Assembly (NCBI RefSeq): GCF_029227855.1
Contig: NZ_CP074356.1
From: Escherichia coli
Lineage (GTDB): Bacteria > Pseudomonadota > Gammaproteobacteria > Enterobacterales > Enterobacteriaceae
Strand: one strand, 5' to 3'
DNA: 64,000 nucleotides
The notes below the pieces were generated by a model. The model ran no database searches. It worked only from the letters and a program-made list of their open reading frames with translations, and was not told the DNA's origin. The position numbers and the translations under genes are program-made. Position 1 is the stretch's first letter. The number at the start of each line of letters is the position of its first letter. Below are positions 16,488-17,403 of this stretch, piece after piece.

Positions 16488-17403
16488 GAATCCCTCTGCA
16501 ACAAAAACAAACAGTCTCCGGCGTGTGCTTTTTGGCTGCGCCAGAACGATACCTTTACGCCGGAGTGGTAGTTTGTTGAGGTTTAGGGAGTTTCAGGCTG
16601 TACGCAGTACAGACTGCCTGCGAAGCAGGAGTGTCTCCGGGGCTTCTTGCCCCCCTCGGTATCGATCTTTTTCTCCTTTACTCTTAGCTGACAGCGGCCC
16701 CAAAGGGCATGTCAGACGGCGGAAATATGGCGCAGGCCAGAACTGGCGCGGCTTGTGGCGGTGAGTTGTGCGGCGTCACTTTGCTTTTTCGCTGGCGCGA
16801 CCAAAGTGACGCCTCGTCTGGTGCAGGGGGTAAACGTTACGTTTCTGGTGCAGGGTGACGGTCACGCGGCAGCAAAGCCTGACGGCAATGCAGGCCGCAG
16901 CCCGTCAATGTAAGGCGCTGGTTGTCAGCAGAAGATAAAACCCGGCAAAGCCAGAGTGTCAGCCCGTAAAGCCGGGTATCTGGTGCAGTGATGGTGTATA
17001 TGTACGTCAGTCTCAGATGCAGGTATTTTTGCATCCCCGGCGTTTTCAGAGATCAACGCCGGTAAAGGATGCCATGCTGGCGAAGCCAGGCGCTTCTTTC
17101 AGACGTGAAGCGACAAAGGGACTGCCCGGAGGCAGTTTGTTGCAGGCGGGAGACTGCGCCATTATTTCTGGTGCAGGAAGGAAAAACTGTTTCCGGGTTT
17201 AAAAGATTGTTTGCTTACCTGGTGACGGAAAAACTGCCGCGCTTCGCTTGTCTTCTCCCGGCGCGCTGCCAGCAAAAGCAGGCAGCGCGCCGGGAGAGTC
17301 TGGTTTTACTGTAACAATGCGCCTGACGGTTCAGCCATCAGGATCGGCGTTTATGCATGAGTCTTCCGGTACGGTTGCCCCGATCATCGATGTATCTGGA
17401 CGG

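Follow-up and report, generated by a model that had tools for sequence, protein, structure and literature searches.

The main finding of our analysis is that a 900-base stretch of an Escherichia coli island is a real, conserved, structured non-coding module: the leader of a mobilization module of the MpsA family, containing the RNA motif EFASI. The stretch occupies positions 16488-17403 of the window, the 64,000 nucleotides of contig NZ_CP074356.1 (assembly GCF_029227855.1) that we analyzed, has exact counterparts (100% identity) in several complete E. coli genomes, and belongs to an island inserted beside tRNA-Asn (13034-13106). Its conservation, its structure, its strand, its linkage to EFASI and to a relaxase-like gene with a PF12835 domain, and the polarity of a repeated 9-mer were observed directly. 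We consider it probable that the stretch combines the origin of transfer (oriT) of an integrative mobilizable element at tRNA-Asn with a leader that is the precursor of a small RNA (sRNA).

EFASI and the relaxase-like gene

A covariance-model scan with Rfam, proposed in a preliminary description of the stretch that was made from the sequence alone, identified a full-length EFASI on the minus strand, ending 55 nt from the ATG of a gene with PF12834 and PF12835 domains (Table 1). Other Rfam families gave only chance-level matches in the remainder, 16671-17403 (E > 1). EFASI is a bioinformatically discovered motif (Rfam). The Rfam summary quoted in PMC12370729 describes it as enterobacterial, of unknown function, located upstream of integrase genes and "frequently around STAXI and integrases". 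STAXI (RF01728) was published in 2010 and occurs near c4 RNAs and integrases (Weinberg 2010, PMC2864571). It is a frequent but non-obligatory partner of EFASI, placed several hundred bp upstream, and it was absent from the window at E ≤ 10 and from loci L002-L026 of our set of relatives. EFASI was similarly placed upstream of an integrase-type gene in 25 related loci. EFASI alone was found in 412 complete E. coli genomes and the whole stretch in 415, and therefore the two always travel together. A variant of EFASI from Shiga toxin-producing E. coli was sought in viral contigs by means of the published qPCR primers and was not found.

The gene next to EFASI is the relaxase-like gene of the module. 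PF12835 is the signature of MpsA-type relaxases (PMC10484663), MpsA being the atypical, tyrosine-recombinase-like relaxase of Salmonella genomic island 1 (SGI1). An SGI1-type MpsA matched PF12835 above the cut-off (E = 7.1e-11) and was 28% identical to the E. coli protein in an alignment of 192 aa (E = 1e-5) that covers the GLR-EE and GTKGGR motifs. Two SGI1-type contigs were retrieved for this comparison with a 21-mer of the published oriTfor primer. There were no matches to the SGI1 primer arms in E. coli genomes, plasmids, a first metagenome scan or viral contigs, and a protein search for SGI1 MpsA returned, among the matches listed, close relatives only. Intact E. coli versions of the gene encode 294 aa (for example in avian pathogenic E. 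coli O78, NC_020163, where gene and leader occupy about 2800050-2801840; PF12835 E = 3.9e-59 for the L002 copy), and the catalytic R, K, HxxR, H and Y are intact in L002 and L027-L032. The window copy matches the PF12835 profile at positions 17-91 only, and RefSeq also flags it as frameshifted.

As the preliminary description held, there is no convincing open reading frame (ORF): the largest have 40-81 aa, and the ones that fall entirely or mostly within the stretch (43-81 aa) have no Pfam match. RefSeq annotates short "hypothetical proteins" here in a frame that differs from strain to strain. We rejected a protein-coding reading on account of the shortness of the ORFs, their inconsistency between strains and the lack of Pfam matches; indels of 1-2 bases in the conserved blocks also argue against coding. 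A phage origin was also rejected, there being a single partial match in a phage database.

Hairpins, core and strand

The two long inverted repeats noted in the preliminary description both exist, and the alignments that it proposed revealed changes on both sides of both stems. The first, hairpin A, has two 12-nt arms (16772-16783 and 16802-16813) that are 100% complementary and 18 bp apart, with a predicted RNA fold of -25.4 kcal/mol (z = -4.5 relative to shuffles). In 28 aligned sequences, 94.4% of the cells were paired and 4 pairs had changed on both sides. This pairing was reached by 0 of 500 shuffles and was not approached in any slid register, although the sequences used for pair counts here and below are related, so that shuffle controls overstate significance and show consistency rather than formal significance. 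The only one-sided changes gave G·U or U·G on the gene-sense (minus) strand. The invariant heptamers of hairpin A (GCGTCAC...GTGACGC) were separated by 18-24 bp across the sequences.

The second inverted repeat, the leader stem-loop, has 20-nt arms (17254-17273 and 17278-17297) that are 95% complementary, and folds at -45.1 kcal/mol (z = -8.4). It was found in the variants that have the HTH_35 (helix-turn-helix) gene. Among 8 distinct sequences 98% of the cells were paired and 6 pairs had changed on both sides; one pair was U·G in six of the eight, and the same pair is A·C on the plus strand. We rejected the leader stem-loop as an intrinsic terminator. It has no U-tract, the minus strand continuing AGAAGACAAGCG, and on the plus strand 9 non-T bases precede TTTT. 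Promoter and terminator scans of the region gave nothing explanatory above shuffle expectation.

Between these hairpins lies a near-invariant core that forms an imperfect hairpin, and its U·G wobbles also fit the gene-sense strand. Two of the smaller hairpins vary in a similar way. The counterpart of the 16688-16715 hairpin in locus L015 is CCGACA...TGTCGG, changed on both sides, and the 17122-17135 hairpin covaries as CTGTC/GACAG, TTGTC/GACAA and CCGTCC/GGACGG. The weak hairpin at 17180-17225 appears to mark a module boundary; the point at which other elements carry inserted toxin-antitoxin genes comes next. All strand indicators agree on the minus strand, as for EFASI and the flanking genes. 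Of the options left open in the preliminary description, a structured RNA is supported by the EFASI match, the compensatory changes in both hairpins and the wobbles that fit the minus strand only.

A repeated 9-mer that points inward

The preliminary description had listed four copies of TCTGGTGCAG, and four exact copies are present within 1-4 nt of the positions that it gave (Table 1). What the copies share is the 9-mer CTGGYGCAG, before which any base but C may stand; conservation does not extend to the flanking bases. Allowing at most one mismatch to TCTGGTGCAG, we found 12 matches in the window, compared with 3.66 ± 1.88 expected; 0 of 100 shuffles reached 12, and 10 of the 12 lay within 14907-17176. 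The suggestion that the motif might occur at chance frequency was therefore not upheld.

The orientation of the 9-mer switches between 16536 and 16817. To the right there are four forward copies. The first two stand at conserved offsets from the core (-40 and -13) in most loci, while the sequence between them diverges. To the left there are the reverse copies listed in Table 1 and others at 15813 and, inside the relaxase-like gene, at 16007. Equivalent left arrays, with 3-6 copies spaced 27-35 bp apart, were present in L002, L004, L008, L012, L016, L020 and L023. Over 26 loci (71 kb) there were 180 copies, with about 1 expected. Forward copies were right of EFASI in 71 of 75 cases and reverse copies left of it in 102 of 105, so that 173 of 180 obeyed the polarity. 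The 9-mer thus points towards the segment of EFASI and hairpin A from both sides. The preliminary description, correct on the motif and the repeats, had missed EFASI, this polarity, the oppositely oriented copies on the left and the tie to the neighboring "integrase" gene.

The distribution of the 9-mer tracks the relaxase clade and not the HTH_35 gene; several loci that have the 9-mer lack this gene. The 9-mers are putative DNA sites of an element-encoded protein, most plausibly the relaxase. A reading as Chi sites was rejected: GCTGGTGC resembles Chi (GCTGGTGG), but the unit is CTGGYGCAG without a preference for G before it.

Table 1. Features of the leader and its flanks, with window coordinates. 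Offsets are relative to the core.
Feature	Position	Strand	Description
Truncated PF12834 + PF12835 "integrase domain" gene	15870-16487	-	MpsA/MOB_M-family pseudogene; 205 aa, 294 aa when intact
Left reverse 9-mer array	15148-15379	-	GCTGGTGCAG at 15148-15157 and 15177-15186, TCTGGTGCAG at 15370-15379; non-coding, past the 3' end of the relaxase-like gene
First reverse 9-mer, TCTGGCGCAG	16536-16545	-	3' edge of EFASI; at -322 in most loci
EFASI (Rfam RF02957)	16543-16670	-	100.8 bits (gathering score 51.2), E = 1.3e-19, model positions 1-133 of 133
Small hairpin CTGACA...TGTCAG	16688-16715	-	Between EFASI and hairpin A; -15.2 kcal/mol, z = -2.5
Hairpin A (first inverted repeat)	16772-16813	-	Arms GCGTCACTTT / AAAGTGACGC, near-invariant; upper stem covaries
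9-mer copies 1 and 2	16817-16826, 16844-16853	+	27 bp from start to start; small variable palindrome between
Core, imperfect hairpin	16856-16907	-	ACGGTCACGCGGCAGCAAAGCC...GCAGGCCGCAGCCCGT; near-invariant; z = -4.1; one covarying pair
9-mer copy 3	16979-16988	+	In the variable middle part; at +122 to +128 in about half of loci
Two small conserved hairpins	17092-17135	-	GCTTC...GAAGC (17092-17111), CTGCC...GGCAG (17122-17135)
9-mer copy 4	17167-17176	+	Counterpart (often CTGGCGCAG) at +296 to +336 in about a dozen of 26 loci
Weak hairpin GGAAA...TTTCC	17180-17225	-	Relatives have a strong terminator-like hairpin, GGGGAAACTC/GAGTTTCCCC
Leader stem-loop (second inverted repeat)	17254-17297	-	GC-rich stem of 17-20 bp, just downstream of the HTH_35 gene
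Ner/SfsB-like HTH_35 gene	17404-17592	-	Final gene of the C4-RNA-controlled operon that lies upstream; same strand as the leader
Leader, read 5' to 3'	17297 to start of PF12835 gene	-	Stem-loop 17297-17254, variable stretch, core, two 9-mers, hairpin A 16813-16772, EFASI 16670-16543, gene start

Conservation and relatives

Of 5426 complete E. coli genomes, 415 carry the stretch, which exists as several variants (67 genomes at ≥99% identity, 242 at 90-95% and 77 at 80-90%). It is also found in at least nine further genera of enterobacteria, so that conservation is not limited to this strain, as the preliminary description had allowed it might be. A search pattern of 22 nt from the core retrieved 19 loci, from Escherichia albertii, E. 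whittamii, Citrobacter, Kluyvera, Lelliottia, Brenneria, Pantoea, Salmonella, Klebsiella and Intestinirhabdus; the neighboring ~25 nt, which had not been selected for, were equally conserved. EFASI lay beside the conserved block in 16 of the 19, the other three loci being too short or rearranged. In the alignment the sequence from EFASI to about 16930 was highly conserved, and that from 16930 to 17200 was variable but kept its small hairpins. The conserved stretch sits directly upstream of the PF12835 gene.

More distant PF12835 proteins are encoded on plasmids of Salmonella (57% identity), Klebsiella (47-50%), Pantoea (49%) and Burkholderia (37%). All of these plasmid relatives have 0.5-1.5 kb of non-coding DNA upstream of the gene, and all have hairpin A with its GCGTCAC...GTGACGC arms, including the 15-kb Burkholderia plasmid, in which a 79-aa ORF overlaps the end of the PF12835 gene. 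EFASI is present in the enterobacterial ones, two of which (L029 and L030) have STAXI ~200 nt upstream of hairpin A; in one STAXI-bearing relative a second STAXI lies just past the PF12835 gene. Judged from these sequences, the shared set is hairpin A (in all), EFASI (in the enterobacterial elements) and the PF12835 gene, with either STAXI or the block of 9-mers and core being specific to a clade. The Pantoea plasmid L029 carries STAXI, hairpin A, EFASI and the PF12835 gene together with an MPF_G transfer system, and MOB-suite recognized no relaxase on it, which fits the PF12835 protein being the relaxase of that plasmid.

There were three further observations on the relatives. First, 148 Salmonella plasmid records, mostly conjugative megaplasmids of the pESI type, contain the module from hairpin A rightwards. 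The copy in L007 (the pESI-type plasmid p-F219 of Salmonella Infantis; 2940-3400) has four 9-mers and no EFASI or relaxase gene and lies beside an rve-type transposase fragment and PemK/MazF; it may be an oriT-only remnant. Second, the toxin-antitoxin genes at the leader point corresponding to ~17200-17225 differ by element: HigA-type in L004 (3779-4078), PemK/MazF in L007 (3463-4053) and HigB/A-like in L011 (ORFs at +91 to +751 from the core). The pattern points to a hotspot for the insertion of cargo or to a junction between modules. Third, STAXI copies occur on both sides of the unit of EFASI and PF12835 gene in L029 (Pantoea piersonii plasmid; 2151-2299 and 3940-4090), and at 4936-5052 in L028. 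The Klebsiella STAXI copy is just upstream of an antirestriction-gene cluster. The placement of these copies suggests that STAXI marks the leading region of MOB_M elements.

The island and neighboring features

From left to right, the island has the P4-type integrase gene, an AT-rich non-coding kilobase, the PF12834/PF12835 pseudogene, the 900-base stretch, the HTH_35 gene, a 153-aa ORF, a C4 RNA (18104-18192) and a divergent Rhs gene. It has the features of an integrative mobilizable element: tRNA-Asn and the P4-type integrase gene adjoin, and there were no genes of a type IV secretion system within the flanks examined. The integrase gene (13260-14532) is frameshifted, so that both recombinase-type genes are broken, and this is likewise the case in the identical RefSeq genomes. 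The island looks immobilized, and because the relaxase-like and integrase genes are both pseudogenes, the stretch is a relic in this strain.

Upstream of the leader, on the same strand, is a P1/P7-type antisense cassette (18104-18289), with a C4 RNA at 62.2 bits preceded by sub-threshold isrK-like (45.5 bits) and c4-a1b1 (43.8 bits) matches. It continues with the 153-aa ORF (17589-18050), which has no Pfam, PHROG or NCBIfam match, and then the HTH_35 gene. The cassette may drive transcription of the leader. On the other side, the AT-rich sequence after the integrase gene (14534-15100; 29-35% GC) contains a 131-nt repeat (14734-14864 and 14962-15092, 73% identity) and nested inverted repeats of 41-43 nt rich in TATCAATA, and may hold att-arm sites or sites of the integration-host-factor type. 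Other Rfam matches in the window, among them a cobalamin riboswitch, DicF, sok, STnc100 and STnc230, lie at 4408-4582, 43550-43601, 49234-49404 and 53648-53837. The tRNAs listed with them are at 8804, 11213, 13034, 37972, 52694, 52875 and 39036; four have identical scores and are probably tRNA-Asn. Such features are to be expected in this E. coli region and in its prophages.

Interpretation and alternatives

In the interpretation that we favor, the oriT would be the inverted-repeat segment around hairpin A, the core and EFASI, recognized and nicked by the relaxase. Hairpin A is the candidate relaxase-recognition inverted repeat, and hairpin A and CTGGTGCAG are candidate DNA targets of the PF12835 protein. 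The 9-mers could act like arm-type sites that build the relaxosome when bound by an element protein. Transcription would proceed along the minus strand, and the 3' part, EFASI, would be released as a small RNA that is required for mobilization or regulates it, as is the case for sgm-sRNA in SGI1. Nicking, transfer, the identity of the 9-mer-binding protein and RNA processing are steps that we infer. In this strain the relic could at most act in cis, with proteins from a related element.

Several observations weigh against this interpretation. By protein alignment, the relaxase-like protein of the window has lost its HxxR, H and Y catalytic motifs through a 35-aa deletion and a frameshift. No gene like mpsB is annotated or evident downstream of the relaxase-like gene in L002-L004, where no profile search was run. 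The sole expression evidence comes from other strains, in whose vesicles an EFASI variant was detected by reverse transcription-quantitative PCR (PMC12370729). EFASI and STAXI gave no match at E ≤ 10 in the mob region of the SGI1 type, and EFASI has no similarity by eye to sgm-sRNA; because EFASI was not detected there, the parallel is positional, that of an analogue and not a homolog. By k-mer search, the 9-mer arrays were not found in the SGI1-type, STAXI-type and Burkholderia relatives and are thus not a general feature of MOB_M oriTs. Some left copies are inside coding sequence, where protein constraint may add to their conservation. To these points is added the relatedness of the sequences used in the pair counts, described above.

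An alternative that we consider unlikely, although it deserves to be taken seriously, is a leader that acts purely at the RNA level, as a structured 5' untranslated region (UTR) or sRNA precursor that controls the PF12835 gene or the upstream operon of C4 RNA and HTH gene, with no oriT role. The leader CUGCACCAG repeats would be seeds that pair with CUGGYGCAG in the mRNA and its 3' UTR, like seqA/B/C of P4 or a/b of P1 c4. EFASI is catalogued as an RNA motif, the wobbles put both hairpins on the transcribed gene-sense strand, and a C4 antisense RNA with a1/b1-like target sites heads the same strand. The leader and downstream 9-mers are exactly complementary, but there is a central purine/pyrimidine mismatch: in the window this position is A in all four leader copies and C in the three nearest downstream copies, giving A·C. 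The mismatched central base weakens the case for RNA pairing between the two arrays. The spacing of the downstream arrays (27-35 bp) and their unconserved flanks are typical of protein-DNA sites, and the invariance of the GCGTCAC/GTGACGC arms from E. coli to Burkholderia argues for sequence-specific recognition beyond pairing. Moreover, a leader RNA and an oriT coexist in SGI1, so that an RNA role is compatible with the oriT that we propose.

It is less likely still that the stretch is a site-specific recombination site and the PF12835 protein a true recombinase, with hairpin A as the core-type site and the 9-mers as arm-type sites, as in lambda attP. Intact homologs do have the full catalytic set of tyrosine recombinases and match XerC and Phage_integrase weakly, and inverted arm-like arrays surround a central inverted repeat. 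However, the arms of hairpin A are 18-24 bp apart, compared with crossover regions of 6-8 bp at att- or dif-type sites. The segment between the arrays had the same orientation in 26 of 26 loci, with no sign of inversion, a P4-type integrase is already present beside the tRNA, and the experimentally studied proteins of the PF12835 type are relaxases. The att/ori-like site suggested in the preliminary description is thus only partly sustained. An att-type core site does not agree with the arm separation, whereas an ori-like site is what we infer from a region rich in inverted repeats directly upstream of an MpsA-family relaxase-like gene.

An iteron-type replication origin or partition site of the excised island is very improbable: there are several direct copies of a short motif, and SGI1 has an iteron oriV elsewhere on its island, but the spacing here is irregular (18, 27, 67, 135 and 188 bp), AT-rich unwinding elements and DnaA boxes are absent from the stretch, and rep or par genes are not regular neighbors, with no rep gene in any locus. 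Decayed coding sequence or functionless chance repeats, another option of the preliminary description, is hardly credible in spite of the flanking pseudogenes and a GC content (53-61%) close to that of the neighboring genes, given conservation across genera with 1-2 nt indels while the flanks change, no Pfam match, covarying stems and a motif far above chance.

If the stretch is the oriT and sRNA leader that we propose, a wider and more speculative idea can be stated. EFASI, and STAXI in sister elements, could be nucleic-acid components of the MOB_M relaxosome, such that mobilization of these islands needs an oriT-encoded structured RNA or a fold of the transferred DNA strand, the converging 9-mers guide or load the transfer machinery, and dependence on RNA is general and independently evolved. 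We regard this as doubtful at present. EFASI and STAXI are orphan Rfam motifs, and their placement before MpsA-family relaxase genes provides a concrete hypothesis. The leader anatomy (hairpin A, core, polar 9-mers and EFASI) would serve as a signature for islands that keep only the cis site; such islands, for example this one and the pESI copy of Salmonella Infantis, might yet be mobilized in trans. For the window itself the conclusion is a modest one: this is a relic control region of a decayed island and not a new gene.

Comparison with known systems

In all three characterized MOB_M systems the oriT is a repeat-rich intergenic region just upstream of the relaxase gene (PMC6414798, PMC8152469). 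A 2026 preprint (bioRxiv 10.64898/2026.01.13.699239) reports that MOB_M relaxases are the commonest chromosomal relaxases in E. coli, Salmonella and others and are usually annotated as integrases. It describes MOB_M oriTs as unknown and, for each relaxase, takes as the candidate ("oriT_rM" families) the first large intergenic region that precedes the gene. The general idea of an upstream oriT is therefore already in that preprint, and the SGI1 paradigm is published. EFASI, hairpin A and polar 9-mer arrays were not found in the MobK passages or the parts of the preprint that we read. In the literature that we consulted, we did not find the link of EFASI and STAXI to MOB_M relaxases, which we propose from sequence comparisons, the hairpin shared from E. 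coli to Burkholderia, or the polar 9-mer arrays.

The oriTs of MobK (pIGRK) and TcpM (pCW3) resemble the stretch in that the intergenic region preceding a tyrosine-recombinase-like relaxase gene holds several inverted and direct repeats (PMC8152469). Closer to it are the loci with STAXI, EFASI and an integrase gene (L029 and L030), in which EFASI is directly before the PF12835 gene and hairpin A ~160 nt upstream of EFASI. A c4 RNA is known near STAXI (PMC2864571) and is present here too. The difference is that the stretch has no STAXI; the invariant core and the CTGCACCAG sites are in the corresponding position.

For the 9-mers, the known systems of polar or arm-type motifs are the arm-type sites of lambda-family attP, the FtsK orienting polar sequences (KOPS) and the clt/TRS (TraB recognition sequence) repeats of Streptomyces TraB. 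The likeness is one of resemblance only: short motifs, opposed in orientation, flank a central site and point to it. There is no sequence similarity, and here the distances reach up to 2 kb on one side.

The mob region of SGI1 offers the fullest comparison. The mpsA strand of SGI1 begins with a promoter (P5), followed, ~66 nt from the start, by a GC-rich inverted repeat that resembles a terminator and then by a dispensable ORF; then come a 125-bp GC-rich oriT with three inverted repeats, the essential sgm-sRNA core, a hairpin and mpsA (PMC6414798, PMC9299015). A primary transcript of 650-700 nt over the leader hairpin and oriT yields the essential sgm-sRNA (PMC9299015), and inverted repeat 1 (IR1) is essential for transfer. 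The two regions differ in that the relaxase-like proteins are only 28% identical, SGI1 has mpsB, for which no counterpart was found here, and SGI1 lacks the 9-mer arrays; the upstream genes are S022/S023 in SGI1 and the C4 RNA, the 153-aa ORF and the HTH_35 gene here. IR1 (CGCGCAC/GTGCGCG, from L034 and the primers) and hairpin A (GCGTCAC/GTGACGC) are similar, differing by one extra T:A pair, but the similarity is too slight for a claim of homology. The likeness lies in the arrangement: in both, ~0.7-0.9 kb of non-coding DNA in an integrative mobilizable element with a separate integrase presents, in the order of the gene strand, a GC-rich leader hairpin, a cluster of inverted repeats, a small-RNA region and a gene for a PF12835 relaxase-like protein.

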